Sequence record: MT682711.1
Direction: 5' to 3' (one strand)
Source of the DNA: Escherichia phage vB_EcoM_FB
DNA: 64,000 nt
Every line of letters starts with the position of its first letter. Within the stretch, counting starts at the first letter, position 1. Position numbers and translations under genes: made by a program. Positions 6,068 through 60,235 of the stretch are shown here, in pieces. Below the pieces are notes generated by a model that saw nothing but the letters and a program-made list of their open reading frames with translations, made no database searches and was not told the DNA's origin.

Positions 6068-6298
6068 TTAATCCTTTGGAGTCAATTCAATAGTGAAGTA
6101 GAAATTAGCGTTCTCAACATGATAACGATAATCTACGTTATTGTCAGGAGAAGTGAATTCAATATTCCTGACGTTAAGTGGGTCAATATCAATAGGAAGG
6201 CCTTTAACATCCCGTAATATCAATTTAATAAAATAAGGGAGTGCTTCGAAGTCTTCCATTCCATCTAAAAGTGGAGTGATATTAATCTGATGTTCCAT
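6068..6298 (-). CDS. hypothetical protein
   Basis: Track ORF starts at GTG 6334; first ATG at 6298 inside gene 55 3-prime end. Confidence 0.35.
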
Positions 6299-6839
6299 AT
6301 AAAAAATCCAGTTCACCAACTTTAGGTTCGGCACTCTTATCAGACCCTGGTGCTTTAGTTAAAGAGGTTTCATACTGAGTCATTTTGTCGTAGATATCTT
6401 GGATAAAGGTTTCATCTGCAATACCTACCATGTCGTCATCATTACTGTCATAGACATTATGGACGAAGTAGCTATATTTCTTTGCCATTTCTTTACGTTC
6501 TTTTTTGATACGCTGAACGAAGGCATTAAAACAAGCCATAGTGATATATGCATGTGGGTTGTCGTATTTTGTTTCGTCGAAATTGTGAAGACCTTTAATC
6601 GAAGCTTCGATTCCATCAGCTATCATTTCCTGCCGCCAAGATTGGGTATATCCTGAGAAGTTGAAACGCTTGCTGAGGCCTTCTGCTATAAGCATAATAG
6701 CCAATCCTATAGTATCATTTTGTCTAATGATTTTATTAGGGTCGGTGTTAGCATATAATTCCTGCTTCCAACTTGTAATAGCTTTAAGAAGCTCCTTGTT
6801 ATTTACATAATTATTTTTTGTTAACTTCACCTGATTCAT
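6282..6839 (-). CDS. 55: late-transcription sigma factor gp55
   Basis: [58 protein letters not shown] matches T4 gp55 as recalled; start at ATG 6839. Confidence 0.9.
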
Positions 6840-7506
6840 AAGCCCTCTTAAACCTATCAACTAGTGGTCTAAAATTATTTATCGTATATGGATAACCTAG
6901 TTCACAGCATTTGCGCCAGAATTTAGAATAACTAGGGCGTCCTTCCTTAATCCAAAGTTCATGGAACTCATCATATAATACATATGTTGGATTTTTAGCA
7001 AACTTGGAATAATTCTCTATAGAGTAATATTCTTTGTTCTTTTTACTTTTGGCCTCTCTAACTTCAGGATTAGCATTATACTCTTTATGGATTCGACGCA
7101 TCATTTCTCGATGCTCTTCATTTTCCCAAGACTTTTTAATAGAGTTGGAAACCCGCTCTTTATATTCAGGGTCCTGCCAGCGTTCGGTAACTTCTTTAGA
7201 CTGTTCTTCAAGTCTTTCCGGTGTCGGAGGAGCATAACCACCTATACCACCAGGTTTCATATTGACGCAGTTAGTTATTTCGGACATGGCATTTTCTACC
7301 AAAAGCTCTTCAAATTCAAAAGCAAGCTCACTTGTCTCAAAATAACATAAGGCCTCTATATTAAAAGAGCATTTCCCTGAGGCCTTAGCATCTTCTACGA
7401 ATTTGCCACTACCGACATACCCGTCATCTATAAATCCGGTGTGTTTACCGAAATAGTAATAAGTATCATTTTCGGATTTTATAGTGGTCATATAACAATA
7501 GTGCAT
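6811..7506 (-). CDS. GIY-YIG-like (Seg-type) homing endonuclease, motif partly degenerate
   Basis: [20 protein letters not shown] and [10 protein letters not shown] parallel the intact Seg-like protein at 44737; overlaps gene 55 start. Confidence 0.5.
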
Positions 7507-38857: not shown

Positions 38858-39490
38858 TTAAAATTTCATTTTTCGACCTTTAAACCATCCTTCTGGAATT
38901 GGGTCAGTTTTCTTAATACGTTTAGAAACTTTTTCATCTAATGAATGAATCCACATCATACCAAATTGGGAATTCTTTTCGCCCTGTTGATGTTTATTTC
39001 TGGCGTGAGATTCTTTCATTTTATTAATAGTTTCAGGAGTATGATGCTTATTTAAAAATCTGCTATTATTTAAAAATTTTTCCCTGTATTCAGGAGTTGA
39101 CCACAAGCGTTTAAATACATTTGAACCATGTTTACGATATTTTTCTTGAAGTAAAATATCACTTTTAAAACGTGACTTAAACGATTTAGCTCCTTTTAAA
39201 CTAGCGTCTTTCTTCTGGTTTAGCATCCCAGGAATATTTATATGGTCCCAACCACCTTCACCACCTAATTTCAAATTATAAACATCAGGGCGCTTTAAAA
39301 ACTCTTCAGTCACAATATTCTTTTCTGACTCAAACATAGAGGTTTTATCGTCAAAGAACTCTCTAATATTTCTTTAGAAAAATTTTCTATACCATACTTA
39401 TCTTGGGCTCTTTTTAATAATTTACCAGAACCCATATATCCATCATCTAAATTTTCGGTAGAATGAGCGCCTATATAGATTTTTATTATT
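38858..39490 (-). pseudogene. decayed GIY-YIG (Seg-like) homing endonuclease gene
   Basis: Upstream frame encodes ..[23 protein letters not shown] with no ATG, stop immediately upstream; downstream 159-codon frame continues the homology after a frameshift at GAGAG. Confidence 0.6.
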
Positions 39491-39567
39491 AATTTTATTT
39501 GTTATTTTATAAATGTAATGGAACATAAATATCTCCTATTTCTAAGAGTATTTATGTTCCCAAAATA

Positions 39568-42815: not shown

Positions 42816-43643
42816 TTAAGAATTCTTCCATACTTTCTGAGCTGAGTAACGCTTACCTTTAGACATGAACTGTTGGAGAGGCATCATTACGACATTAGCC
42901 CAATCAGATGGTTTTATCTCTACTAAAGGTCCCTTAATATTTCCAGGGATATAAGCCTTAATCATCACGTCGGCGCCAGCGAATCCTTTTACCTTACTCC
43001 AATCGATTTTTAATTTAGTCGAGTTCGTAATGGTAGGCGTACTCGCGTATTGCTTCAGCAATTCTTCCAGAAATTGTTGTCGTGCTTTAGGTGGGATATA
43101 GTGTAAGTTCAGCCCGTACATTAAATTATGCTTACCTAGCCCAAGATAAATGATTAATGGATATTTGTCCCAGTACGGTAGGGTATCCTTATGTTTGGCA
43201 TCATAGATATACGCATAAAGCTTACCAGGAGATGGTTTAGATACCTGGTGCCCACGAATTCCTTTCTTTAATGTTTCTGTAAACCATTTAGCCGATTTAT
43301 TGTTTACAGCGGCGCCCTCGTTAGCAATCTTATCACGAATACTCTTTCTAAAACTATTCACCAAAATTAATTGACGTTCTGCTTTGGTTAATTTATTGCC
43401 AGGTTTCTTCTGAAGTTTTTCAACCTGTACAGCAGTTTTAATTCGACTCGAGTATCGAGACATCGCAGATGTAAAGCTAGAATACTTGATGCCTTTATCT
43501 TCAGCGAATTTCTTAGCCGAAACACCTTTAGCCTTAGCGTTGGCATATTCAACGCCTAAAGTTATCCATTGTTGTTCTGAACGAGTAGGCTTGGAACCTT
43601 TTGTAGTTTCAGTAGCCTCGTTGATGTAAGAAAATATACTCAT
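42816..43643 (-). CDS. 2: DNA end protector gp2 (by position and size)
   Basis: Start at ATG 43643 forming ATGA overlap with gene 4 stop. Confidence 0.6.
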
Positions 43644-44089
43644 CCTTTCCATCCTAATTTTTTCAGTGAGTTTTCGGTAATCAATCTGAAATTAATTCCC
43701 ATTTTATCTGCTGTAGCTTTAGCAGCTTTCCATTTATCTTTATTTACACTCCATGTATAATGTTCGTTGATATATCTCTTTTTAGCAGCTGTAGTCATTT
43801 TAGCAGGCGCCGCTGGAGGATGGGTCTCTTTAAAAGGTTTGACTTCGAAAAAGAATTGTTGACCATTGTCGAACTTCACCCAGAAGTCCATAAAATACCG
43901 ACGTTTCTTTCCATCAGCGTTACTAAAATATGGAATCACAACCTCTTCCGAGTTCCACTGGACGACATTAGGATGGTTGTCAAGCCAACGCATAAGCCAT
44001 GCTTCCCAAGAGGAACGATATTGGATTTTCTTCCAATCACCTTTATATTTTTGTAAGTTTGTAGGTTTAAATTTCCCTGAGTAGGCCAT
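43640..44089 (-). CDS. 4: head completion protein gp4
   Basis: MAYSGKF.. N-terminus and 149 aa as recalled for T4 gp4. Confidence 0.75.
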
Positions 44090-44099
44090 AGTGCCTCCT

Positions 44100-44107
44100 T
44101 ATAAATA
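44100..44107 (+). promoter_or_regulatory. late promoter TATAAATA for gene 53
   Basis: Exact TATAAATA 28 nt upstream of gene 53 ATG, GGAGG SD between. Confidence 0.65.
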
Positions 44108-44114
44108 TTAATAT

Positions 44115-44122
44115 TATTTATA
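44115..44122 (-). promoter_or_regulatory. late promoter TATAAATA for gene 4
   Basis: Exact TATAAATA on minus strand; the two boxes sit inside a 9-bp inverted repeat AGTGCCTCC/GGAGGCACT. Confidence 0.6.
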
Positions 44123-44134
44123 CTCGGAGGCACT

Positions 44135-44737
44135 ATGCTCTTCTCATTTTTCGATCCTATAAATTACGAATCAAAAACAGTCAAGCCAGATTCCGGCTCA
44201 TTAACTGATGCCGATGTACTGAGCGTACCGATGACTGATATATTTAGAAACTATAAAGAATATTTTGATAAAGTGGCTAAAAATTATACACTTAAAACAT
44301 ATTATATCAGTGGGGCCCCTCGTCCAGAAGAATTAGCCCATCAACTTTATGGTAACGTGCAATTATATTGGATCCTTTTAATGTGTAACAATATCTATGA
44401 CCCTTATTACGGCTGGATTACAGGCCAAGAATCTGCGTATCAAGCAGCTATTCAACGTTATGCTACTGCAGGCGGAAACCAAGTCCTTTATCATGTCAAT
44501 GAAAAGGGTGAGAAATTCTGGAATCTAGTAAATACTCCGGAAAATCCTTATACTTGGTACGATAAAGGTGATACAGAAAAACGTTATCCTCAATATGAAG
44601 GTCCTTTGGCTGCAGTAGATATTTACGAGGACGCCATTCGTAAAAATGAATATAAGCGCGAAATAAAGATTATAGACCCTAATGACATCGAGTCCTTTGT
44701 TTCCGCTTTAATTAGAGAAATGGAGAAGTCACTCTAA
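44135..44737 (+). CDS. 53: baseplate wedge protein gp53
   Basis: MLFSFFDPINYESKTV.. N-terminus and 200 aa as recalled for T4 gp53. Confidence 0.8.
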   Translation: MLFSFFDPINYESKTVKPDSGSLTDADVLSVPMTDIFRNYKEYFDKVAKNYTLKTYYISGAPRPEELAHQLYGNVQLYWILLMCNNIYDPYYGWITGQESAYQAAIQRYATAGGNQVLYHVNEKGEKFWNLVNTPENPYTWYDKGDTEKRYPQYEGPLAAVDIYEDAIRKNEYKREIKIIDPNDIESFVSALIREMEKSL

Positions 44738-45249
44738 TGTTTTATTACGTCTATAAAATAACCAATATAATTAATGGTAAATTTTATATCGGTGCTCATA
44801 GTACATCAAATATGGATGACGGTTATATGGGCTCAGGTAAATTAATTAAACGCGCTATACTAAAATACGGCATTGAAAATTTCAAAAAAGAAATATTAAA
44901 ATTTGTTGATTCTAAAAAAGAAATGTATGAACTCGAAAAAGAACTTGTTGTCCTTACTGAAAATTCATACAATTTAAAACCGGGCGGTTCCGGTGGGTTT
45001 TTAAAACATGATAACTTTAAAGGCAGGTCCCATAGTCAGAAAACCAAAGATATTATGAGCGCTAATAACTCAGGCAAAAACAATCCTATGTATGGTAGAA
45101 AACGAGACCAACACGGAGAAAAAGCACCTAATTATGGTAAAAAGTGCTCTGAGGCTAAAAGAAAATTACTTTCTGAAAAATCTAAATCCTATTTTGAAAA
45201 CCTTCAAACCATAACTAAAAAATCTCGGCTTTGGTCCTACATCGGTTGA
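44737..45249 (+). CDS. GIY-YIG homing endonuclease (Seg-like)
   Basis: FYYVYKITNIINGKFYIGAHS GIY-YIG motif, [14 protein letters not shown]-like Gly/Lys repeats. Confidence 0.8.
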   Translation: MFYYVYKITNIINGKFYIGAHSTSNMDDGYMGSGKLIKRAILKYGIENFKKEILKFVDSKKEMYELEKELVVLTENSYNLKPGGSGGFLKHDNFKGRSHSQKTKDIMSANNSGKNNPMYGRKRDQHGEKAPNYGKKCSEAKRKLLSEKSKSYFENLQTITKKSRLWSYIG

Positions 45250-45369
45250 AACTAGATATGTATCAAGACATATTAAAAAGCTAGGATTAGATTTTTATAA
45301 ATTTAATCGTGATATAACAGAAACTAATGTTTCCATAGTTAGAAATATTTTAGAACAAAGGAAAGCGCT

Positions 45370-47157
45370 ATGATTAACATGTCTGATAATGTAAGTTGGT
45401 TCGTCGGTGTAGTTGAAGACCGAATGGACCCGCTCCAACAAGGCCGAGTACGCGTGCGCGTATGGGGTATGCATCCTTACGAAAAGGTCCAAGGTCCTGT
45501 AAAAGGCCTTCGTACAGAGGATTTACCGTGGATGTCCGTATTAATGCCTACATCTTCTGCCTCTGTTTCTGGTATCCAAACCGCTATGACTGGTATGGTT
45601 CCAGGTACTCAGGTTTATGGGCACTTTCTTGATAAGTGGAAATTAAACGGGCTTGTCCTCGGTACATATGGTTCCGCTTCAAGACAAAAGGCTAATCCTA
45701 ATGAAGGTTTTAGTGACCCGACAGGTCAATACCCACTTTATTTGGGTAATGATGCTGCAGCACTAAACCGAGGTGGTGAAGTTGGATACGATGCCACTTC
45801 CAACGTAATACAAGATGCAAACACCGATGTAGGTATTAATCCTGATGGTTTAGATTTGAGCCAGGTTAAGCCTGATGATAATCCTAATTTCACAATAGAA
45901 AACATGCTTCACCGTGATGAAGGGCTTCGACTGAAGGTATATTGGGACACCGAAGGATACCCTACTATCGGTATAGGTCACCTTATTACACCACAACCTA
46001 TTAGAGATATGAATCAAATAAACAAAATATTATCTAATCAGGTAGGACGAGAAGTTAAAGGTAACCCTGGTGCAATATCAATGGACGAGGTTTCTAAATT
46101 ATTCCAAGACGACCTTAAAAAAGTCCAAAACGATATAGGCAGGCATAGTGTTGTAGGTCCTGTTTATAATAAAGAAAACCGTTCGAGACAAATGGCTCTT
46201 GAAAACATGGCTTTCCAAATGGGATTGGGCGGCTTGGCTAAATTCCGTGGAATGCTTAGTGCAATGCTAATAGGCGATTATAAAAAGGCATTTGAGGAAG
46301 CTCGTAATTCAGTATGGTTTAACCAAACTAAAGGCCGTGCATCAAGGGTGTCAATGATTATCCTCACAGGTAACATGGAATCATATGGTATTATGGCCCC
46401 TAAAGAAAGGTCATTTAATGGCCGTTCGTATAGAATGATTCAAACCTTTGTGGCCCCTACAAATTCAGACCCTGCCGACCCGTGGACTCCAGAAGACACA
46501 AGGATTCTTTTTAAAGAACCTGATTCTAGTTATAAAGGCGAATATCCATATGTCCAAACCATGCAAACTGAAGGCGGGCATATCCAAGAATTCGATAATA
46601 CTCCAGGGCAAGAACGATACCGTTTAATCCATCCTACCGGTAGTTATGAAGAAGTTGCTCCTGATGGACGTAAAACTTCTAAGACGGTAGCCGATGGTTA
46701 TTATATGACCCAAGGCGATTCAAATACTTATGTTGGTGGTAATAATAAAGTCAACGTTGGTGGCGATGAAACCTATTATAATATGGCAAACGTGCGCCGT
46801 CAAACTGATGGGTCTGAAAGCATTCATATTCGAGGGAATGAAACCAAAACTGTAGAAGGTAATGGAACTCTGCTTGTTAAAGGAAATGTTAAAATAGTTA
46901 TTATGGGTACTGCTGATATAACTGTTGAACAAGAAGCATATATTACGGTTGAAAAAGATACAACAGTTAATGTCAACCAGAATGCAGATATAAGCGTTAA
47001 ACAAAAGGCCACAATCAATGCTCAAAATATGGATGTAAATGTCGAACAAGATTTAAATTTTGCAGCGACGAACATTAATTTAAACGCATCAAATACTGTG
47101 CATATGGATGGCGGTTCATTAGCTAAAGTATCTGGTGGCAACGTACAGGTCGGTTAA
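45370..47157 (+). CDS. 5: baseplate central spike gp5 with lysozyme domain
   Basis: N-terminal OB-like region, internal lysozyme block (HRDEGLRLKVYWDTEGYPTIGIGHL), C-terminal V-N-V repeat beta-helix. Confidence 0.85.
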   Translation: MINMSDNVSWFVGVVEDRMDPLQQGRVRVRVWGMHPYEKVQGPVKGLRTEDLPWMSVLMPTSSASVSGIQTAMTGMVPGTQVYGHFLDKWKLNGLVLGTYGSASRQKANPNEGFSDPTGQYPLYLGNDAAALNRGGEVGYDATSNVIQDANTDVGINPDGLDLSQVKPDDNPNFTIENMLHRDEGLRLKVYWDTEGYPTIGIGHLITPQPIRDMNQINKILSNQVGREVKGNPGAISMDEVSKLFQDDLKKVQNDIGRHSVVGPVYNKENRSRQMALENMAFQMGLGGLAKFRGMLSAMLIGDYKKAFEEARNSVWFNQTKGRASRVSMIILTGNMESYGIMAPKERSFNGRSYRMIQTFVAPTNSDPADPWTPEDTRILFKEPDSSYKGEYPYVQTMQTEGGHIQEFDNTPGQERYRLIHPTGSYEEVAPDGRKTSKTVADGYYMTQGDSNTYVGGNNKVNVGGDETYYNMANVRRQTDGSESIHIRGNETKTVEGNGTLLVKGNVKIVIMGTADITVEQEAYITVEKDTTVNVNQNADISVKQKATINAQNMDVNVEQDLNFAATNINLNASNTVHMDGGSLAKVSGGNVQVG

Positions 47158-47158
47158 T

Positions 47159-49222
47159 ATGAATTACTACGATAAAGTTGATGAAGTGGTAGGGACTGTA
47201 ACAAGTCCCTGTGATGACGCAGTAGGACCCGGTGAATATCGCCGGGTTAAATGGGAATTATATAACCCAACAGGTGCTTTTATTCAACCTGGGAATGGCG
47301 TTGAATGGGATACCGAGATTATTCCACTAGCTACACATTTATACACACAAAATCCATTTGGTAATAAGTCCGAAACTTTTCCTGCACCTCCCCCACCGGA
47401 AGATGGAACAAGTCAAGGTATCTGGTGTGCTAAACTCGGAATATTCTTTATTACGCAATTGGATTTAGAAAATTATGTAGAATCGATTGGTGCAACTCTT
47501 TTGCCCGGTAATGATTGGTACGGCGCTGATTTATCAAAATCTGTATTGTATAAAACATCTATTGAATATGATATGTATCGCATCGAAAACTGTGGCGGTG
47601 TATGGACATCACAAGGCCCCAGAATGGACCCCAGGACGATGATTGCAGTTACGGCTGATTATCATATGTATGTCAACTTTAACGGCCTTGGTGACTCCCG
47701 CAGGGCTTATTTGAAGTACTATGAGACAAAACCTTGTACTTATGTTGGACTGGTATTAAATCTAGATGTTGATACGAGTATCCCAGGAACTCCGATTCCG
47801 GGACCGGTATCCATCGGGTCTTTACCGCCAGAAATAACCGGGCGAGCCAGGGCAATAGGCTGTGTTCCTTTTACAGCGGAATTCCCTTACAACGGATTGA
47901 CCAATGCGATTATGGCTTCATGGAATACATCTAGGAATTCATTCAAATTATATTGGGATATGCTCCCTGGATGGCCATCATCTGGTGGAACCGATTGGGA
48001 AAAATTCTTCGATTCTGGTTATAGTAAGCTATCGGTCGCAATGGAAGAGCTAGGCAACTCAGCTGTTGCTATGTGTCAATATGTTCAGCAAATGGCTTTT
48101 CTTGCATTTAAAGATGCCATATCACAGGTCTTGAATATTGTTGGCGGTGGGTGGGACTTACTTAAAAGCTTTTTACCCTCGATTACTATTATGGGCATGA
48201 CTATTGACCTAGAAGACCTCTGCACTTCAGGTGATGGTGTACAGAAATTAAAAGAAGCATGGAAAAACTTTAATTTAGAAGAAACCATCCAATCGATTTA
48301 TTCTGCCATTGGGTCTGCATACGATTATTCGGTTGAACGCGTCAAGATGTATTCGCGTGACCTTATTGATGCAATTACAGACTTGTATGACTGGGCCTGG
48401 TCTCAATTGCTTATGGCTGGTGTTGCATTATCAAAACTGTGTGTAGACCTCGCTCAAATATGGAGTATGCCTCCTATAGTTCCGAACCCAGTTTGGAGCG
48501 TTATTACTGCGGTCAAGGAAATGATGAAGCAAGTTAAACCACTGGACATGATAATGAGCGGTAACTTTCCAGGATTCACAGCATCAGATGTTTATCAAAT
48601 GGTTATGGAAAAGGTAGACCAGAAAATAGACGAAGCTTATGCAATGATTGAGGCTCTTAAAACCCAGGCACTCAATCTGTGGAATGAGATTAAGCTCAAA
48701 AAGCAAGAAGTACAAAAACAAGCTATTGAATTTAAACAATATCTTTCAGGAATGTACGAAAAAGTTACAGACGAGCTAACTGCTCAGAAGGAAGCCGCAT
48801 TAGCACAAGCTGAAGCTGCACTCGAACTTTTAAAGAATAAATATAATCAGATTAAGAACTCTATTACCGAAAGTCAAACCTCCGTTTCTGATGTATTAGA
48901 TATGGCTTTAGAAGAATTCAAAAAACTTCCTATTGTGGCTCAAATGGAAGAACTTCTCGGTATGCTCGGAGCTACTGTAGATGATATCATGGTTATATAC
49001 GAGAACTCAGTAACTAAAGCAAAATCTTTATATCACGAATTTACTGATGGTTCCAGGTCAATGAAAGACTTGTGCAAATCAATGTATAACCAAATATCAA
49101 CATTATCCTTAAGTAAGGTGGTACAATGGATTAATAAGATGCTGGGAATATTCGGTTTAACGATTGCATTTCCATCCCTTTCCATTTGCATACCTTGTTT
49201 AGAATCTCCTACTAGGAATTAA
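47159..49222 (+). CDS. large protein of unknown function between genes 5 and 6
   Basis: 687-codon ORF; ATG overlaps gp5 stop (TAATATG), ends 1 nt before gene 6 ATG; no motif recognised. Confidence 0.6.
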   Translation: MNYYDKVDEVVGTVTSPCDDAVGPGEYRRVKWELYNPTGAFIQPGNGVEWDTEIIPLATHLYTQNPFGNKSETFPAPPPPEDGTSQGIWCAKLGIFFITQLDLENYVESIGATLLPGNDWYGADLSKSVLYKTSIEYDMYRIENCGGVWTSQGPRMDPRTMIAVTADYHMYVNFNGLGDSRRAYLKYYETKPCTYVGLVLNLDVDTSIPGTPIPGPVSIGSLPPEITGRARAIGCVPFTAEFPYNGLTNAIMASWNTSRNSFKLYWDMLPGWPSSGGTDWEKFFDSGYSKLSVAMEELGNSAVAMCQYVQQMAFLAFKDAISQVLNIVGGGWDLLKSFLPSITIMGMTIDLEDLCTSGDGVQKLKEAWKNFNLEETIQSIYSAIGSAYDYSVERVKMYSRDLIDAITDLYDWAWSQLLMAGVALSKLCVDLAQIWSMPPIVPNPVWSVITAVKEMMKQVKPLDMIMSGNFPGFTASDVYQMVMEKVDQKIDEAYAMIEALKTQALNLWNEIKLKKQEVQKQAIEFKQYLSGMYEKVTDELTAQKEAALAQAEAALELLKNKYNQIKNSITESQTSVSDVLDMALEEFKKLPIVAQMEELLGMLGATVDDIMVIYENSVTKAKSLYHEFTDGSRSMKDLCKSMYNQISTLSLSKVVQWINKMLGIFGLTIAFPSLSICIPCLESPTRN

Positions 49223-49223
49223 A

Positions 49224-51182
49224 ATGGCTACTCCTACGAATTACCAATTAACAAGAACCGTTAACGCTATCCCAAAAGTATTTGTGGGAGCTACGTTTGA
49301 AGAGATTAAAAAGAATATTATTGATTGGCTTTCTAGCCAGGACGAATTTAAGGATTACGATTTCGTTGGTTCGCGAATGAATATCCTGATTGACATGTTA
49401 GCTTACAACACCCTGTATATGCAGCAGTTTGCTAATACCGCGGTATATGAATCTTTCATCGGTACCGCTAACTTGCGTTCCTCCGTCGTCCAGGCTGCAC
49501 AGGATAACGGCTATTTGCCAAGTTCTAAATCAGCAGCCAAAACAAGTATCATGTTGACCTGTACCCAAGCCCTGAATGAAAAGAATATTCGTATCCCGCG
49601 TGGTACTAAATTCTTGGCCTATGCCCGTGATACTTCAGCAGACCCGTATGCTTTTGTTACCACGGAAAACGTTATTGCCGTACGTGATGTTAATAACCAA
49701 TATCTTCCTATCGTATCTTTAGCACAAGGTCGTATTATCCGTACTGAACTTAAGTATGACCCTAAAACTCCTATTCTTATTCGTGACCCGGATATTGATA
49801 GACAGGAAGTTAAACTTTATGTCGATGGCGCAGAATGGACTAACTGGACTAATAAATCCATGGTTCATGCTGGTAGTACATCAACAATTTACTATATGCG
49901 TGAAACCGTAGATGGTAATACTGAATTCTTCTTTGGTGAAGGTGTTGCTGAAAAATCAGTTGCAGGTGGGGTATTAGAAGCTAATTATATTGGTGGTTTA
50001 AAACCTGTTAAAGATGCTACCATTGTTATAGAATACCTTCGTACAGATGGTGAAGTTGCTAACGGGGCAGTGGACTTTAGTTATGCGGATTCTTTGGCAT
50101 ATATTACGGTTGAAAAAATTACAGAAAACTACGATGAAAACCCGGATTATGTAGGTGCTGACGGTGGTGGTGACCCTGAAGATATTGAACGTATTCGTGA
50201 ACTTGCTGTAGTTAAACGTGAAGCCCAGATGCGTGCTGTAACCGGTACAGATTATGATACATTCGTTTCGGAGCGATTTGGTTCTATTGTACAAGCAGTA
50301 CAAACCTTTACAGACCCAAATAAACCAGGTTATGCCTTTGTTACCATTAAACCTAAATCAGGATTGTATTTGACTGCGGTTCAACGCGAAGATATCCAAA
50401 ATTATCTTTCAGAATTTAACTTGGCACCTATTACCCCTTCGGTTATTTCTCCTGACTACTTGTTCTTGAAGCATAAAATTAAGGTTTCATATGCACTGAA
50501 CAAATTACAGGAATCCGAACAATGGTTAACGGCTCAAATCCTTTCCCAAATAGACCGTTATTATATTAACGAAGTTGAAATATTCAACCACGGATTTGCC
50601 AAGTCTAAAATGCTGACTTATATTGATAATGCAGACCACAGTATCCTTGGCTCTTCGGCTACGGTAACAATGGTTCGCGAGGTATTAAACTTCTTCAAAA
50701 CACCTGAAGCGGGTATTAAATACTATAATCAATACACCAACCGTTCTGTAACTTCTAGTGAATTTGAGTTCGTCCCAACAAACGTATCGGATGTTGTTAA
50801 ATCTTACAACGTACGTATTGTTGCCACAGATAAAGACGAACGAGGCGATGGTAAAATGGTTATAGGTCCTTTCCGACCTGGCGATGTAATTGAAAACCAA
50901 TACATCCAACCTTACACCGGAGATGACTTTGATAAAATGGCAGCGCCTGCAGACCAATCAGTCTACTATGTTATTGGCGAAATTGATTATTACTCAGATT
51001 TTATTTTCTGGGATATTGCCGCAATAGGCCTTACTTCCGACCGTTTTGAAGTCCAGTCTATTGAACTGTATGCAGGGCCAGACCAAGACAACATCTTTAC
51101 CAAAGACGGTTCTTTAATCGTATTTGAAGATGACCTTCGTCCTCAGTACACAACTATAGAGTTGGAACCAATTACAATATAA
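49224..51182 (+). CDS. 6: baseplate wedge protein gp6
   Basis: MATPTNYQLTRTVNAIPKVFVGATFEEIKKNI..LAYNTLYMQQF matches T4 gp6 N-terminus as recalled. Confidence 0.85.
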   Translation: MATPTNYQLTRTVNAIPKVFVGATFEEIKKNIIDWLSSQDEFKDYDFVGSRMNILIDMLAYNTLYMQQFANTAVYESFIGTANLRSSVVQAAQDNGYLPSSKSAAKTSIMLTCTQALNEKNIRIPRGTKFLAYARDTSADPYAFVTTENVIAVRDVNNQYLPIVSLAQGRIIRTELKYDPKTPILIRDPDIDRQEVKLYVDGAEWTNWTNKSMVHAGSTSTIYYMRETVDGNTEFFFGEGVAEKSVAGGVLEANYIGGLKPVKDATIVIEYLRTDGEVANGAVDFSYADSLAYITVEKITENYDENPDYVGADGGGDPEDIERIRELAVVKREAQMRAVTGTDYDTFVSERFGSIVQAVQTFTDPNKPGYAFVTIKPKSGLYLTAVQREDIQNYLSEFNLAPITPSVISPDYLFLKHKIKVSYALNKLQESEQWLTAQILSQIDRYYINEVEIFNHGFAKSKMLTYIDNADHSILGSSATVTMVREVLNFFKTPEAGIKYYNQYTNRSVTSSEFEFVPTNVSDVVKSYNVRIVATDKDERGDGKMVIGPFRPGDVIENQYIQPYTGDDFDKMAAPADQSVYYVIGEIDYYSDFIFWDIAAIGLTSDRFEVQSIELYAGPDQDNIFTKDGSLIVFEDDLRPQYTTIELEPITI

Positions 51183-51209
51183 GCCTCTTCGGAGGTTTAA
51201 GGAGATTTA

Positions 51210-54200
51210 ATGTCTGTACAAGCGCCTTATGTTACTAGTCTGAGAATTGATAAACTCTCGGCCAACCATGTGAGCATTCTTTGGGATGACGTAGGCGCCA
51301 ACTTCTATTATTTCGTAGAACTGGCCCAAACGAAGGATGCGGGTGTAGAAATTCCCGACGATAGATTATTTTGGAGAAATTTAGGTTACACCCCTAATAA
51401 CGAATGGTTTGAAGAGGCATTCATTTCTCCTAATTCATTTTATAAAATGCGAGTTGCGGTGGCCGCCCAGGGGTTTGAGCAGTCTGAATGGGTTTACACT
51501 GAAGAATTTGAAACTTTCTCTACCAACGCATATACATTTGAGCATATGCGCGAATTCGCGTTGTCTAATAAATTTATTGAAGAAAAATTCACAAAAAATA
51601 ATCAGAATTATGTGAACTTTAATACTGACGCCATTATGGCTTCTTTGATGAGTGAAGATTTTAACTTTACGCCAGCGTATTCGCATTTGTCATCTATATC
51701 AAATTATGTTTTAAAAGCCGACCGTTTCCATGAAATCCAAGGAAGCATCCAAGCGGTTTGTAAAGACCCTAAACGTTCTATTTTAATGGAACTTGGTGGT
51801 GTACTTTACCTTTTAGAAAGATTCCAAAGTACCGCTAAGGTTTCTAATGATAAAGGGCAGAACTGGCATTATATCCGTTTGTTTAATGACCGAGTAGGTA
51901 ACCCTGTTTCGCGTACAGCACATTACCAAACTGAAACTACTACGTATGTTCTAGGTTATGACCAAATATTTTACGGACGTAAATCAAGTGATATTCGTTG
52001 GTCTGCCGACGATGTCCGTTTTAGCTCTCAAGATGTAACATTTGCTAAAATAGGTAGTGATATCGACCTTCCATTTGAAATCGAGATATTTGGTTCTTAT
52101 GCAAAACTTCCTTTGCCTATTTCCACTATTGCTGAAGCTATATGCGCTTCTGACGATTTCATTTATGTTGCAGGTAGAGACAGAGTTTATAAAGCAAAAA
52201 CATCTGAGGCTCCTATAGACACCGACCCTAGTTCTCCGACTTATGGAGAGAAGATATTTGAAAGCGGATATTCAACTATCACAGGGAACCCTAAAGCAGT
52301 TTGTTATAAATTAGATTCTATCCAAGGCCGTACATTTGCTTTAATTACAGGTGAAGTTAAAGAAGAAAAAATGGACCCTACGGTCGAATCCAATGTGGTT
52401 GATTCTGAATCCAAAGGTGTTTATTGGTTAGACACTTCAACTGATACATGGACTCGTGTATTTGGAAACACCGAAGAAGAACGTCGTCGTATAGAGCATG
52501 GGTATACCAGCATGTCTACCGACGGAGAGGAATTATTTTTCAGTTCAAGCAACTTTAGATATGAAGTAGAGGTTGATTCTGAGCTTCCTTTGGAATACCC
52601 TGAAATTGTCACCTCCGCCGTTAAATATGTTAAAGATGAACAATGGATTCACGATAAACATTATTTGATGATGAGTTTTAGGTCTAACTCTAAATCCGAT
52701 TTCAAAGAATTTAAACCTGGGCGTATGGCTTATTATGCCGAACCATTCTTTAGTTGGTCTCGACGCGATGGAACCCGTTCATGGATTACCACCGGTGACC
52801 ATGCGATGGTTGTTTATAACGATGCTTTATACCAGAAAATTATCGACCTGAACAGTGGTTCTTCACCTGAACGTATTGTTCATGAGATTTGGAATAAAGG
52901 TTTTTGTAAAGTCACATCTCCTAATATAGAGTTCAACGGCTTTAAGAAATATTCTTCTGGAATGATGATTCACAAATCTACAGGTGAATTGGTTGGATAT
53001 TTTGAATTCGACTATCGTGTACGCGATGAAGTCCGTGTTATTTGGAAGCCTAAAGAAATTATGTTTACGGCTGAATTGCAAAACCAAGAACATGAAATCC
53101 CGTGGAAACCTAAAGAGGAAGTTGGTGAGCAAGACCCGGACCTCCAGCCTTTACTGGTTAAAATGATTCCAGATAGTTATTTGCTTCAAGATAGCAACTT
53201 TGAAAAATTCTGTGAATACTATCTCCAATTTATTAGTGATGGCTCAGGTACACACTATAATAATTTGTTGAATCTTATTCGTAACCAATACCCACGTGAA
53301 GAAGATTCATGGGAATATTTGTGGTCGGAAATCTATAAGCGTAATATCTATTTGTCGAAAGAAAAACGCGACGAAGTAGTTCGTTTTTTCCAGGCGCGCC
53401 AAACCGATTTTTGGTCTACAAAAGGTACCGAAGCTTCATATAAATTCCTGTTTAAATTGCTTTACAATGAAGATGTAGAAATTGATATCGAGTCCAAGAA
53501 CTCTATCGAATATGATATCATCGTAGAATCTGATAATATCAGTGAAGATATCGTAGGCCAAACGATTTATACTCCTACAGGTCGTAGTAATGTTACTTAT
53601 ATAGAACGAAATTACAAAGATGGTAAACTGCAATGGCGTTTAACCATTCATAATCTTTTAGGTCGTTTTATAGTCGGACAGGAAATTAAATCTGAACGTA
53701 CTTCGTTCAAGGGTATGATTGTTCAGGGCGTACGTGGTAAAGAGCTTTTGAGTAACAATATCGACTATATCAACCGTAACCGTTCTTATTATGTGATGAC
53801 CATTAAGTCTAATCTCCCTACTTCTCGTTATCGCAACGATGTTTTGAGATTTGTTCATCCAGTAGGTTTCGGCTTTGTAGGTATAACTTTGCTTTCTATG
53901 TTCGTTAACGTAGGTTTAACGCTAAAACATACAGAAACTATTATTAATATCCTTAAGAACTACAAATGGGACTCAGGTTTGCCATCTGAATGGTATGATA
54001 GAGTTGCTGTAATAGGTTTTGATGGTAATATAGAACGAGACCCTAGAACAGGACTTCCGGTTTATAACGTTGGACCTAAAGCAGGAGAACCGTTTGATAT
54101 CCCTGCAGATTATGATGCGGAAAATGATTTCTCTGTATTCCAAGGTCAATTACCACACGAACGTATTAAAAAGCATAGTCCATTGTTTGACCAAAGTGCT

Positions 54201-54305
54201 GTGACCTTTGCCAATTGGCGTGCACTGGTTGATAAGCGTCTTAAAGACGATATTGGAAATCCTAGAGACCCTAAAGTTCCAACTCAGGTAAAAATTAATG
54301 ATTAA
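51210..54305 (+). CDS. 7: baseplate wedge initiator gp7
   Basis: 1031 aa at the T4 gp7 position and size. Confidence 0.8.
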   Translation: MSVQAPYVTSLRIDKLSANHVSILWDDVGANFYYFVELAQTKDAGVEIPDDRLFWRNLGYTPNNEWFEEAFISPNSFYKMRVAVAAQGFEQSEWVYTEEFETFSTNAYTFEHMREFALSNKFIEEKFTKNNQNYVNFNTDAIMASLMSEDFNFTPAYSHLSSISNYVLKADRFHEIQGSIQAVCKDPKRSILMELGGVLYLLERFQSTAKVSNDKGQNWHYIRLFNDRVGNPVSRTAHYQTETTTYVLGYDQIFYGRKSSDIRWSADDVRFSSQDVTFAKIGSDIDLPFEIEIFGSYAKLPLPISTIAEAICASDDFIYVAGRDRVYKAKTSEAPIDTDPSSPTYGEKIFESGYSTITGNPKAVCYKLDSIQGRTFALITGEVKEEKMDPTVESNVVDSESKGVYWLDTSTDTWTRVFGNTEEERRRIEHGYTSMSTDGEELFFSSSNFRYEVEVDSELPLEYPEIVTSAVKYVKDEQWIHDKHYLMMSFRSNSKSDFKEFKPGRMAYYAEPFFSWSRRDGTRSWITTGDHAMVVYNDALYQKIIDLNSGSSPERIVHEIWNKGFCKVTSPNIEFNGFKKYSSGMMIHKSTGELVGYFEFDYRVRDEVRVIWKPKEIMFTAELQNQEHEIPWKPKEEVGEQDPDLQPLLVKMIPDSYLLQDSNFEKFCEYYLQFISDGSGTHYNNLLNLIRNQYPREEDSWEYLWSEIYKRNIYLSKEKRDEVVRFFQARQTDFWSTKGTEASYKFLFKLLYNEDVEIDIESKNSIEYDIIVESDNISEDIVGQTIYTPTGRSNVTYIERNYKDGKLQWRLTIHNLLGRFIVGQEIKSERTSFKGMIVQGVRGKELLSNNIDYINRNRSYYVMTIKSNLPTSRYRNDVLRFVHPVGFGFVGITLLSMFVNVGLTLKHTETIINILKNYKWDSGLPSEWYDRVAVIGFDGNIERDPRTGLPVYNVGPKAGEPFDIPADYDAENDFSVFQGQLPHERIKKHSPLFDQSAVTFANWRALVDKRLKDDIGNPRDPKVPTQVKIND

Positions 54306-55302
54306 TTCTACAGTAGTTTATCGTTCTATTGTTACTTCAAAATTTAGAACGGAAAAAATGTACAACTTTTACAGAACAATAGGTGATGGTGAAGACCAGA
54401 ACACCATGTATGTATCTTTCGGAAGGGCCCGACCATGGGCCGATAACGAAAACGACCCAGGTTTTGCCCCGCCATATCCTGTAGATGATTCTGAAGGCGT
54501 AGAAGACGTCTGGACAAACATGATGGGATGCGTTAAGGTTTATAAGAGCATGTTGGATTGTGTTGTCCCGCGCAAAGACTGGGGCGATACCTCTTATCCT
54601 AATCCGTTTACTTTCCAGATTGGTGAAATTGTAGTGGCGAACAGCCAGCCGCAAAACCGTACTGATGTCGGTGCCGGGTGGATGGTTTATCGTTGTGTAG
54701 ATATCCCAGAATCAGGTACATGTTCTATTTTGTCCCTTGATAATAAAACTGAGTGTATTAAACTTGGTGGTAAATGGACCTCAAATGTACAGTCGGTTAA
54801 AGCTCCAGCAGGTCAAGGTGATACGGAAGGTATGGTTGATACGGGTGATGGGTATCTCTGGGAATATTTGTATGAGATTCCACCTGATGTAAGTATTAAC
54901 CGTTGCACTAATGAATATATCGTGGTTCCATGGCCAGAAGAAATTGCCGAAGACCCGGAACGTTGGGGATACGAGAATAACCTTACTTGGCAGCAAGACG
55001 ATTATGGATTGATTTATCGTATTAAAGGCAATACCATTCGTTTTAAAGCATTCTTAGATTCAGTTTACTTCCCTGAATTTAGTCTTCCTGGTAACAAAGG
55101 ATTTAGACAGCTTTCGATAATCTCTAATCCATTAGAAGCTAAAGCTCACCCATCCGATCCGATCATTAAAGCCGAAAAAGAGTACTATGATGTTATAGAC
55201 CTCTCCCGCCATTCAGGTGAAATGATTTATATGGAAAACCGTCCTCCGGTTATTCGTTCCATGGACCAAACAGAAGAAATTAACATTATCTTCGAATTCT
55301 AA
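54298..55302 (+). CDS. 8: baseplate wedge protein gp8
   Basis: 334 aa; VYRSIVTSKFRTEKM..INRCTNEYIVVPWPEE matches T4 gp8 as recalled. Confidence 0.85.
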   Translation: MINSTVVYRSIVTSKFRTEKMYNFYRTIGDGEDQNTMYVSFGRARPWADNENDPGFAPPYPVDDSEGVEDVWTNMMGCVKVYKSMLDCVVPRKDWGDTSYPNPFTFQIGEIVVANSQPQNRTDVGAGWMVYRCVDIPESGTCSILSLDNKTECIKLGGKWTSNVQSVKAPAGQGDTEGMVDTGDGYLWEYLYEIPPDVSINRCTNEYIVVPWPEEIAEDPERWGYENNLTWQQDDYGLIYRIKGNTIRFKAFLDSVYFPEFSLPGNKGFRQLSIISNPLEAKAHPSDPIIKAEKEYYDVIDLSRHSGEMIYMENRPPVIRSMDQTEEINIIFEF

Positions 55303-55304
55303 TA

Positions 55305-55329
55305 AGGGCCGCAAGGCCCTTTCGGGTTT
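55305..55329 (+). terminator. weak terminator-like hairpin after gene 8
   Basis: GGGCC-GCAA-GGCCC then TTTCGGGTTT; followed by near-consensus late box TAATAAATA. Confidence 0.35.
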
Positions 55330-55363
55330 AATAAATACAGTATATCAATAATGAGGCATACCT

Positions 55364-56224
55364 ATGATTAAGCAAACTGGTAAAGAACTAATTGACGTCG
55401 GTGAAATTGGTAATGCCAGCACCGGCGACATTCTTTATGATGGCGGTGTTAAACTGAACACTGACTTAAACAACATATATAATACTTTCGGCGACCAACG
55501 CAAAACTGCTTTAACTGGTGAATTAACCGGTCAGAAATTACACGCTACAGGTTATTATCAAAAATTTGGTGATATGGACCAAGCAAGCTCAGTAGATTTA
55601 GGCTCTTTGGTGGATATCGATGCTTCTACCGGTTCTATCGTATTAACCACTGTAAAAGGTGCAGTCGGTGAAGGAATCGAGATTATCAACTCTAACGGGA
55701 GTATTTCTTCCACTAATTATCTTGAAATCCGTATATTGGATACTTTTGCAAGCCATTCAACTTCGACTTTGCGTATCGTAACACCCTATACACGGGTTCT
55801 TTTATGGTGTGTATCGGATACAAACGGCGTTGCAGTATGGGATTATTCAATTGAAAGTATGTTTGGTGATAAACGAGTTCCATTAAATAAGACATATAAT
55901 ATATCTTCTGTCGCTCGTGATATTCCGGTGGTTTATTCCGGCCAGTATTCATTGGTCAAACTTTTAGTTACGGCAGTGAATGCCAACGAAACCATTTACA
56001 AAGCTTCAGAATATCTTGTGTTTATCGACAACCAAGCTAAAAAGATTTATTCCACCGAATACGCTGTTATTAAACGTGGGCAAACTTCAGATGATGACGA
56101 AATTTATTCCCTAGATTTTAAATTCGATACATCAAACTATATTATCGCGACCGCTTCTTCTGTCAATCCTATGAGGCTTGCAATTAAGGTCGTAGAAACC
56201 CAAACTATTGGAGTTCCAGTATAA
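55364..56224 (+). CDS. 9: baseplate wedge / long-tail-fibre socket protein gp9
   Basis: 286 aa; LIDVGEIGNASTGDILYDGG matches T4 gp9 as recalled. Confidence 0.85.
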   Translation: MIKQTGKELIDVGEIGNASTGDILYDGGVKLNTDLNNIYNTFGDQRKTALTGELTGQKLHATGYYQKFGDMDQASSVDLGSLVDIDASTGSIVLTTVKGAVGEGIEIINSNGSISSTNYLEIRILDTFASHSTSTLRIVTPYTRVLLWCVSDTNGVAVWDYSIESMFGDKRVPLNKTYNISSVARDIPVVYSGQYSLVKLLVTAVNANETIYKASEYLVFIDNQAKKIYSTEYAVIKRGQTSDDDEIYSLDFKFDTSNYIIATASSVNPMRLAIKVVETQTIGVPV

Positions 56225-58035
56225 TGAAACAAGACTTAAAAGTAGGTTCCGCTGTTGATGACGGGTCCGGTGATTACCTGCGTGCAGGTGGTCTTAAAAT
56301 TAATAACAACTTCAATGAGCTTTATTACCAATTAGGTGATGGCAACAACCCTCATGCAGCAGGCGCTTGGAAACAGCATTCTACTGCAGATGGTGCTTTG
56401 TTGAACGCTGTAATGGGTCATAGCTATACCCTTAATACTCAAGGTGGGCGTATTAACGTTCAGCTTCCTAAAGGCTCTCCTGAAGAATATAACTTTGTTA
56501 TCCGTGTACGTGATGTGTATTCCTCATGGCAAGCTAACCCTGTAACCCTAATCCCTGCCACGGGTGATACCATTAAGGGTTCAGCTACTCAAGTAGAAAT
56601 TGCTCGCAACTTCTCGGACCTTGAATTAGTTTATTGTGCCCCAGGACGATGGGAATACGTTGAAAATAAGCAAGTAAACCGTATTCCAAATAACGACCTC
56701 GCTACTGTAGCAACTAAGCAGTTTATTGCCACTGAAGGCCAAACAGATTTTCTAGACATTTTCCCAGGGCTTTCTTATAACGTAGCAAGTTTAAGCGTTT
56801 CGCAACGTGGTAACAATTTGTTCTACGGTGTTGATGATATTTTTGATGCGGCTACTGCAGAGTTCGGTTCTCCGGGTGCTCAACCAGGCGAATTGGTTGC
56901 CTTGAATGGTAAAGACATCCGTTTAAAATATCCTTGTGAAGCAGGTGATACTGTTATTATCAAATCATATAATGACGGGCTTGCTCAATGGCGCAGTTCT
57001 TATAACCGCCGTGATATAACAATCCAAAGTTCAGAATTGACTAAAAACGTTTCTGTTCCTGGTTCTTCTTTCGTGGCTGATTTGAATACTTCGCATGTTA
57101 TATCGGCCGCAGATTTGAATATTTCTGTTAACAGCCCTATCAACCCAAATGCTTGTCAAGTCATGCTTAATAGCACATTACTTCATCAAGCGGGTACAGC
57201 AGGACTTCCTTCGTTTTATTGTGAAGGTGCTGATGGTCGTACTGCTACCGAGTGTTTTAATGCTGGTGGTCAATGGACCCAATCTAAATCAGATTATATT
57301 TTTAATTTGACTCCTGAAGACAAGATTGAATCTATTGAATTTGGACGTAACTTTGAACACGGCGATATTCTTACAGTAATTTGGTACAATAATGATATCG
57401 GTACCACCATGGAAATTGATGAGATTTTGGATTATACCAACAACATCTATATTTCTAAAGGGCCTTCTATCGATATAACAGGTCAAGTTCGTATCACTGA
57501 TGTAGATAATCCTTTTGCACCTAACGTTGAACCGGTCGCCGCGTCCAATATTACAATAGATACAGCAGCAACGTTTTTTGATTTGGTCTATCCAATAGGA
57601 ACCATCTATGAGAATACGGTGAACCCTAATAACCCTAAAACTTATATGGGCTTTGGTTCATGGAAGCGTTTATCTGATGTGTTCTTGGTAGGTTGGTCTC
57701 CAGACGCAGCTTCTTTGTTTAATGCAAATAATAACGATCTGGATTCTGCTGGTATTCCACAGTCAACTGCCGGTGGTACTGGTGGTGCTCATGTGGCTAA
57801 TTTGAAATATGAGAATATCCCTGAACTTAATACCGATGATAAAGTCCTTATTGCTGATAACGATGGCCCTATTTTTGTAGGTGGATGTTTAGTTGACCCT
57901 GATTCACAAGGACCGGCTTATACAAAATATCGTGAAGATAAAGCCAGTATTAATAAGGCTCAAGGAACCACTCCTATCCCGGTTAATACTCTACCACCAT
58001 ACTTAACTGTTCATCGCTGGATGAGGATTGCATAA
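56224..58035 (+). CDS. 10: baseplate wedge / tail pin protein gp10
   Basis: 603 aa at T4 gp10 position and size. Confidence 0.8.
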   Translation: MKQDLKVGSAVDDGSGDYLRAGGLKINNNFNELYYQLGDGNNPHAAGAWKQHSTADGALLNAVMGHSYTLNTQGGRINVQLPKGSPEEYNFVIRVRDVYSSWQANPVTLIPATGDTIKGSATQVEIARNFSDLELVYCAPGRWEYVENKQVNRIPNNDLATVATKQFIATEGQTDFLDIFPGLSYNVASLSVSQRGNNLFYGVDDIFDAATAEFGSPGAQPGELVALNGKDIRLKYPCEAGDTVIIKSYNDGLAQWRSSYNRRDITIQSSELTKNVSVPGSSFVADLNTSHVISAADLNISVNSPINPNACQVMLNSTLLHQAGTAGLPSFYCEGADGRTATECFNAGGQWTQSKSDYIFNLTPEDKIESIEFGRNFEHGDILTVIWYNNDIGTTMEIDEILDYTNNIYISKGPSIDITGQVRITDVDNPFAPNVEPVAASNITIDTAATFFDLVYPIGTIYENTVNPNNPKTYMGFGSWKRLSDVFLVGWSPDAASLFNANNNDLDSAGIPQSTAGGTGGAHVANLKYENIPELNTDDKVLIADNDGPIFVGGCLVDPDSQGPAYTKYREDKASINKAQGTTPIPVNTLPPYLTVHRWMRIA

Positions 58036-58700
58036 TGACTTTAACTGAAATGAAAAGCGGGTTAAAATCCCGCTTAGCCGATTATTTGGAATTATCTTAC
58101 ACTAGTGACAAGCCTACTGCTGTCGCTGACCAACGTCCTATCGGTGGGCCTTCTGCAAACCAAACCCAGAAGGGTGTTTATTTTCCTACAGTCCAAAGTG
58201 CAATAGATGATATTGCATTTAGAACAGAGCTTCCTGTGAACTCCGTTATTATTACCACAGAAAACAGAGCACCTGGATTTATTCAGCAATCTGATAAAAT
58301 TACATTTACCGGTTCTATTTCTTCAGGCGGTGAACTTGGCGACCCGGTTATTATTAAAGTGTTCGGACTTCCTGTAGAGGTCTTAGTTGGCGATTCATCT
58401 GTATTGGTTGCATCTAAAGTAAATGATGTGTTTTTAGACGCTATTGCTAATAGCTATATTTTAGCCGAAACTGCTATTGATGCCTTAGACCAATCTACCT
58501 TGAATATTAAATACAATGACTATCAGAATCATATTTTTTCACCATATAAACAATCGGGTTGTACAATTTCCCATACTATAGTCCAACAGCCAAGGGCTGG
58601 ATACGGTAAGTGGGAATACTTAGGTAACTCTACCCAATCGTTAGCAGGTGGTACAGTTAACGGCACGATTCCTTTATATTACTATAAGAGATTATATTAA
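58035..58700 (+). CDS. 11: baseplate wedge / short-fibre attachment protein gp11
   Basis: 221 aa at T4 gp11 position and size. Confidence 0.75.
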   Translation: MTLTEMKSGLKSRLADYLELSYTSDKPTAVADQRPIGGPSANQTQKGVYFPTVQSAIDDIAFRTELPVNSVIITTENRAPGFIQQSDKITFTGSISSGGELGDPVIIKVFGLPVEVLVGDSSVLVASKVNDVFLDAIANSYILAETAIDALDQSTLNIKYNDYQNHIFSPYKQSGCTISHTIVQQPRAGYGKWEYLGNSTQSLAGGTVNGTIPLYYYKRLY

Positions 58701-60226: not shown

Positions 60227-60235
60227 GGGTAAAAA

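Follow-up and report, generated by a model that had tools for sequence, protein, structure and literature searches.

The 64 kb stretch of the Escherichia phage vB_EcoM_FB genome analysed here (record MT682711; hereafter the window) carries a short ORF between the baseplate genes 53 and 5, which raises the question of what this gene is, how it came to lie there and whether it is still functional. Our analysis makes it likely that a Seg-type homing endonuclease gene (hereafter seg) invaded the 53/5 overlap of JS98-like and VR7-like coliphages, and that the vB_EcoM_FB copy is frameshifted and probably crippled. Judged by its sequence, the window belongs to a JS98-like coliphage (genus Dhakavirus); megablast of the region led to JS98-like coliphages of this genus, with vB_EcoM_IME540 as the best match (98.9 %).

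The ORF list of the window gives an ATG-initiated frame of 170 aa (Table 1), the start codon of which shares one A with the TAA of gene 53 (44735-44737), i.e. the junction reads TAATG, as had been described from the sequence beforehand. QLF81398.1 (‘hypothetical protein FB_0152’ of vB_EcoM_FB) has exactly the sequence of this product, which is composed of the authentic residues 1-161 followed by nine out-of-frame residues (KSRLWSYIG) and a TGA (45247-45249). Gene 5 begins 120 nt past this stop. The expected order, with seg directly upstream of gene 5 in the late operon, was thus found, without the zero spacing that ‘directly’ implied.

Table 1. Features of the 53/5 junction of vB_EcoM_FB (positions in the window)
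Feature	Position	Strand	Remarks
T4-type late promoter box TATAAATA	44100-44107	+	Exact box, 28 nt upstream of gene 53
Gene 53, baseplate wedge subunit, 200 aa	44135..44737	+	PF11246 Phage_gp53, E 1.7e-72
Three-SNP cluster (44728, 44729, 44731)	44728..44731	+	Last gene 53 codons
Truncated seg ORF	44737..45249	+	GIY-YIG, aa 3-79; NUMOD3, aa 96-125
Inserted segment	44737..45369	+	Missing in empty-site relatives (gap versus LHE83 and WG01)
Frameshift site A6	45217..45222	+	A5 in all six other allele-A copies; AAGAA in allele B
Out-of-frame 3' part of seg, +1 frame	45218..45373	+	Encodes residues 161-211, KNLGFGPTSVETRYVSRHIKKLGLDFYKFNRDITETNVSIVRNILEQRKAL
Shine-Dalgarno-like AAGGAAAG for gene 5	45358..45365	+	Inside the seg 3' end
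Gene 5, baseplate hub and tail lysozyme, 595 aa	45370..47157	+	Gp5_OB, lysozyme and Gp5_C (Pfam)

The assignment to the GIY-YIG superfamily was borne out by Pfam, in which the 170-aa product matches GIY-YIG (PF01541) with 27.1 bits (cut-off 22.6; profile positions 2-78 of 78) and NUMOD3, also above its cut-off, with 44.9 bits. The SegE_GIY-YIG profile (PF19835) scores exactly at its cut-off (25.0 bits), and PHROG 314 (‘homing endonuclease’) matches with an E value of 3.5e-49. The closest T4 paralogue is SegC, with 45 % identity over 156 aa, i.e. the GIY-YIG and NUMOD3 part (E 9e-39), and this similarity, together with PF19835 and PHROG 314, places the protein among the relatives of the Seg proteins. 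An AF2 model of the allele-B orthologue (88 % identical), built with 22 homologues, reaches pLDDT values of 94-98 for residues 1-80 and of 39-56 in the C-terminal part, too low for that part to be used. Among PDB folds, the model came closest to the catalytic domain of I-TevI (1mk0 and 1ln0; probability 1.00, target TM-score 0.59), i.e. the GIY-YIG alpha/beta fold. Residues Y6, Y17, E67 and N79 are invariant in the 22 homologues and all kept in the window ORF, as are all 27 family-invariant residues, every one of which lies within positions 3-84. These four are candidates for the two Tyr, the Glu and the Asn of the I-TevI catalytic set, which also comprises Arg27.

The C-terminal 50-74 aa of the protein found no match in Pfam (E up to 10) or the PHROGs, alignment revealed no homology between the C-terminal 50 aa and the C-termini of other Seg proteins, and neither a zinc finger nor a recognisable I-TevI-type DNA-binding domain was detected. 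Searching the PDB by sequence with the full-length protein gave no match at E<=1, and a profile of the 22-sequence family found I-TevI at an E value of about 1 only. The sequence pattern of the tail and the modular build of such enzymes lead us to guess that it forms a helix-turn-helix targeting module. Distant homologues of the protein (31-39 % identical in the alignment) occupy other junctions of structural or replication genes (loci L034 1501-2244 and L035 1504-2307). In Acinetobacter phage Apostate, one of them lies between the baseplate genes 8 and 9, and in Aeromonas phage Aes002 another splits gene 43, which encodes the DNA polymerase.

The original prediction held the gene to be intact, a view that does not survive comparison with its other carriers. 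All five phage records with the gene, i.e. IME540 and KIT01 (Dhakavirus) as well as P479, P896 and PSD2001 (Gaprivervirus), have a full-length form of 636 bp and 211 aa, which runs from the gene 53 stop to an ATGA on the start of gene 5, and the same form is found in 26 of 26 other contigs (16 + 10, one protein allele each). In the window, a single extra A shifts the frame after codon 161, leaving the last 50 codons out of frame and the protein without its C-terminal 50 aa; the insert accordingly measures 633 nt, compared with the 632 nt of other carriers. Codons 162-211, the authentic last 50 (NLGFGPTSVETRYVSRHIKKLGLDFYKFNRDITETNVSIVRNILEQRKAL), remain readable in the +1 frame, the TGA of which (45371-45373) overlaps the gene 5 ATG as ATGA. 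While stop/start coupling to gene 5 is kept in the intact copies, it is lost in the window, where the truncated ORF ends 120 nt early and gene 5 must therefore initiate from its own ribosome-binding site.

The orthologues described at the same 53/5 site differ from the window copy in this respect. QJA42683.1 of IME540 (‘putative Seg-like homing endonuclease’) is identical to the window ORF over residues 1-161, with one SNP and one indel separating the DNA sequences, and BBI57502.1 of KIT01 and QWQ55977.1 of P479 (‘hypothetical protein’) are 88 % identical to the window protein; all three are 211 aa long and end in ATGA on gene 5, whereas the window copy is frameshifted and has 170 aa. The two alleles of the gene, A and B, differ at 52 % of synonymous and 7 % of non-synonymous sites over the whole 211-aa ORF (pN/pS 0.14). 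For residues 161-211 alone pN/pS is 0.225, i.e. selection also acts on the tail that the window copy has lost. For annotation purposes, the 170-aa ‘hypothetical protein’ would be better labelled a frameshifted Seg-like endonuclease gene.

Because MT682711 was assembled from Illumina MiSeq data at 134x coverage (PMC7471389), the frameshift, as found in this one deposited assembly, is probably a real mutation. It seems unlikely that the extra A arose during sequencing or assembly and that the phage in fact has an intact 211-aa gene for a fully functional endonuclease, even though the change concerns a single base in a homopolymer, the 170-aa form occurs in one record and one contig only in the protein cluster listing, and the window copy equals the otherwise invariant allele A apart from a private synonymous SNP (44868). 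With this platform and coverage, a consensus error in an A5/A6 run is unlikely, and the 170-aa sequence is listed under both Logan and NCBI, a hint that it was also assembled independently from reads. Moreover, the adjacent essential structural genes (45361-61675, 16.3 kb), which are 97.9 % identical to those of LHE83, contain just one non-3n indel; the assembly is therefore not riddled with indel errors, and an error-prone assembly was rejected as an explanation on this ground.

Taking the frameshift as real, the 170-aa protein could itself be a working endonuclease with a dispensable tail, considering that GIY-YIG and NUMOD3 are untouched, that the invariant residues are complete and that several database homologues are only 140-180 aa long. 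We regard this as quite improbable, since the tail is under purifying selection between alleles that differ at about half of their synonymous sites, the full-length tail is kept in each of the 26 other contigs, and in I-TevI specificity is supplied by the C-terminal DNA-binding domain (PMC2988022).

Alternatively, the A6 run might act as a slippery site (CATAACTAAAAAATCTCGG), at which either a +1 slip of tRNA-Lys, with AAA AAA T read as A AAA AAT, or slippage of the polymerase, with one A lost, would yield low levels of the 211-aa protein, the gene being a down-tuned copy. A +1 shift on the run would indeed restore ...ITKNLGFG..., identical to allele A, and homing endonucleases are commonly held at very low expression (PMC2988022). 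However, six A's are short for efficient slippage and the A6 is absent from every other carrier, hence the run is not conserved, which makes this mechanism highly improbable. If true, it would mean a throttled, still mobile endonuclease, and the abundant 170-aa product, comprising nuclease and NUMOD3, might have a separate role.

We therefore return to a real and probably damaging frameshift. The product in the window retains the nuclease domain and NUMOD3 and loses the C-terminal 50 residues, which would belong to the DNA-targeting module; with the tail seen as such, the copy is probably in early decay and inactive or badly crippled for homing, although some activity might persist in a shortened enzyme with NUMOD3 still in place. 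An inactivated copy would fit the degeneration phase in the life cycle of homing endonuclease genes, and the locus is in sum an ordinary free-standing Seg-type homing endonuclease gene, probably in early decay.

A second Seg-like GIY-YIG gene of the window (38858..39526, -) is decayed as well, being spread over several frames with ORFs of 41 and 159 aa. It shows 80 % nucleotide identity to an intact 666-bp ‘homing endonuclease’ gene of LHE83 (locus L017 24782-25447) and carries a 2-nt insertion at 39359 and a 1-nt insertion at 39480. Decay of endonuclease genes is therefore under way in this genome, which speaks for a real mutation in the 53/5 copy too, as does the private SNP at 44868 in an otherwise invariant allele.

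Regarding its origin, the gene behaves as a true insertion. It is present in five of the 63 records that match the window locus, and the same five are occupied among the 102 that match the Gaprivervirus locus, so the interval is empty in around 95 % of close relatives. In empty sites, gene 53 overlaps gene 5 directly, by TAATG in Dhakavirus and by ATGA in Gaprivervirus, and in T4 (strain GT7 record) the two genes overlap by 17 nt with nothing in between, in agreement with the original prediction, in which the interval is empty in T4. The position is the same on all 26 carrier contigs, and seg is free-standing, flanked by intact genes 53 and 5 and not within an intron. In the closest empty-site relative, LHE83, gene 53 abuts gene 5, and over 43380-45432 the flanks of the window are identical to those of LHE83 save for one private SNP and the SNPs at 44728, 44729 and 44731, all three of which lie less than or at most 10 nt from the junction. 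The alignment of the junction in relatives, which had been proposed as a check, thus revealed a clean insertion polymorphism, and the precise insertion of a homing-endonuclease-type GIY-YIG gene between genes 53 and 5 holds both by Pfam and by the comparison with empty sites.

Several observations argue for recent mobility of the element. Allele A shows no difference over 621 nt among five other carriers, in the same genomes in which gene 53 is 89.8-98.5 % and gene 5 90.7-96.8 % identical. Allele B spans the two genera Dhakavirus and Gaprivervirus and is 99.4-100 % identical, with gene 53 identity going down to 70.8 % and that of gene 5 to 80.7 %; KIT01 and P479, for example, differ at three of 636 nt in seg, and their gene 53 sequences are 74.6 % identical. 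With seg far more similar than its flanks, and with presence and absence at a fixed site among close relatives, the pattern, as read from the sequences, is the expected population signature of homing, and the near-identity of seg across diverged flanks makes the element look recently mobile and spread by homing. That seg is instead an immobile, ancestral gene of the 53-5 operon which most relatives have deleted can practically be dismissed, for although presence and absence by themselves give no direction of change, near-identical copies (99.4-100 %) between flanking genes of 71-92 % identity in two genera are incompatible with vertical descent, and at empty sites genes 53 and 5 join seamlessly by a start/stop overlap, in T4 as in many other lineages; the ancestral-gene scenario was rejected because of this near-identity in diverged backgrounds.

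As to how a homing gene would have spread here, we infer endonuclease activity, target and homing for every allele by analogy with known systems. In a co-infecting relative, the uninterrupted 53/5 region would be the substrate of the 211-aa enzyme, in analogy to T4 SegA-G and I-TevI (PMC2988022), and seg would enter the cut site as the break is repaired by recombination with the carrier genome. Carriers, with the halves of the junction 632 nt apart, would be immune. The flanking haplotype shared by independent carriers is short, at around 36-44 nt on the left and <24 nt on the right. Within this left interval, loci L028, L031 and L032 change from Bp7-like to LHE83-like sequence, and KIT01 from Dhakavirus-like to Gaprivervirus-like. 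The original prediction had placed the target in gene 53 or gene 5 of endonuclease-free relatives as a possibility; such short haplotypes suggest a break at or beside the 53/5 junction, which is probably the target, although they could alternatively come from later recombination that trimmed the tracts. The SNP cluster in the last gene 53 codons is AAGTCACTC in the window, versus AAAGCCCTC in empty-site Dhakaviruses, and is common to all allele-A carriers; it stems either from co-conversion of donor sequence or from a change in the target.

At the left junction of the insert, gp53 is given a new, equivalent C-terminus and stop (…EMEK[S/A]L*). At the right, the last ~15 nt of seg, AGGAAAGCGCTATGA in the Dhakavirus carriers, mimic the way in which gene 53 originally ends in Gapriverviruses with an empty site, GGAGAAGGCGCTATGA, and in allele-B carriers the final few bases of seg vary with the local background. 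By bringing its own gp53 C-terminal codons and a gene 5 ribosome-binding site, the cassette thus keeps both and leaves the essential late operon undisturbed.

Transcription would likewise be provided by the neighbourhood. The late box upstream of gene 53 is the sole exact one on the + strand between 1225 and 61851, and gene 53, seg and gene 5 therefore appear to form a single late transcription unit; on this reading of the sequence, seg is a promoter-less cassette without an exact late-promoter box of its own. Scanning 43900-45600 for sigma-70-like promoters and terminators gave nothing clearly above shuffles. A terminator-like hairpin, ACCGGGCGGTTCCGGT followed by GGGTTTTTAA, lies within the seg coding region (44979..45004, +), where it covers the conserved PGGSGGF motif; the whole scan was barely above shuffles.

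Among known systems, T4 SegC offers the closest parallel. Located between genes 5.1 and 5.3, its gene is part of the same late baseplate operon and is likewise a cassette without a promoter and with a start that overlaps the upstream gene (PMC2988022). In contrast to the shared N-terminal part, the C-terminal region of SegC is unrelated to the tail of the window seg, and a different target is therefore expected; the SegC site also lies ~2.2 kb downstream of the 53/5 site. The mechanism proposed here is that of T4 SegF and SegG, in which intronless homing and marker exclusion proceed through a break in the seg-less relative, repair and co-conversion of flanking sequence (PMC2988022), and the population-level signature of the 53/5 seg fits this mechanism. 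Compared with SegF and SegG, the flanking haplotype shared by the 53/5 copies amounts to only tens of bp, which again suggests a cut at or beside the insertion site. I-TevI, encoded in the td intron of T4, is the best structural match by its catalytic fold and shares the plan of N-terminal nuclease, linker and C-terminal targeting module; in contrast to I-TevI, the window seg is not in an intron, and sequence similarity between the two is marginal (E about 1, with the family profile).

T4 has 15 endonuclease genes, none of which is at 53/5 (PMC2988022), and JS98 was without homing endonuclease genes in a 2010 survey (PMC2993671). In the literature searched, we found no report of a seg gene at the 53/5 junction and no experimental study of the IME540, KIT01 or P479 orthologues. 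The insertion site is thus new to that literature, the kind of gene itself, i.e. Seg-type, being known. Scientifically, the result is modest in that it adds one insertion site, the stop/start overlap of the essential baseplate genes 53 and 5, to the Seg catalogue. It also offers a useful natural data set, with two alleles that are each near-invariant across diverged flanks in two phage genera, and with short shared haplotypes that predict a cleavage site at the junction. It further comprises matched pairs of an occupied and an empty site (vB_EcoM_FB and LHE83) and of an intact and a frameshifted copy (IME540 and vB_EcoM_FB). With all of these to hand, mapping the target and testing the C-terminal region become straightforward.

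The 53/5 neighbourhood appears to be a hotspot for homing endonuclease genes. Some Gapriverviruses, namely P479, PSD2001 and Yersinia phage P8, have another gene annotated as a homing endonuclease (648 bp), which is placed between genes 4 and 2 at a distance of ~1.1 kb from the 53/5 site (loci L003 466-1113, L005 467-1114 and L014 367-1014, all -), and DK-13 has a 729-bp ORF at the gene 4/2 position. Elsewhere in the window, a further Seg-like GIY-YIG ORF (6811..7506, -; 231 aa; PHROG 314, E 6.5e-20) is apparently intact. It is only 26 % identical to the 53/5 seg and overlaps, with its 3' end, the beginning of an ORF of 192 aa (6282..6860), which, going by its sequence, putatively encodes the late sigma factor gp55.

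Two further observations concern the genes around the junction. The head completion protein gp4 (43640..44089, -) matches the Pfam family Tn7_TnsA-like_N, which has an endonuclease fold, with an E value of 2.9e-24. Downstream of seg, the C-terminus of the 595-aa form of gp5 is followed by a 695-aa ORF (47135..49222; PHROG 5296; region 46750..49222, +), an arrangement that is also present in LHE83, WG01 and Bp7 and that looks like an alternative spike-tip cassette. The other version, consisting of a 580-aa gp5, gp5.1 and a PAAR protein (gp5.4), is found in JS98, MX01, IME540 and KIT01 and in every seg carrier other than the window, which is the only seg carrier seen with the 595-aa gp5 and the 695-aa ORF.
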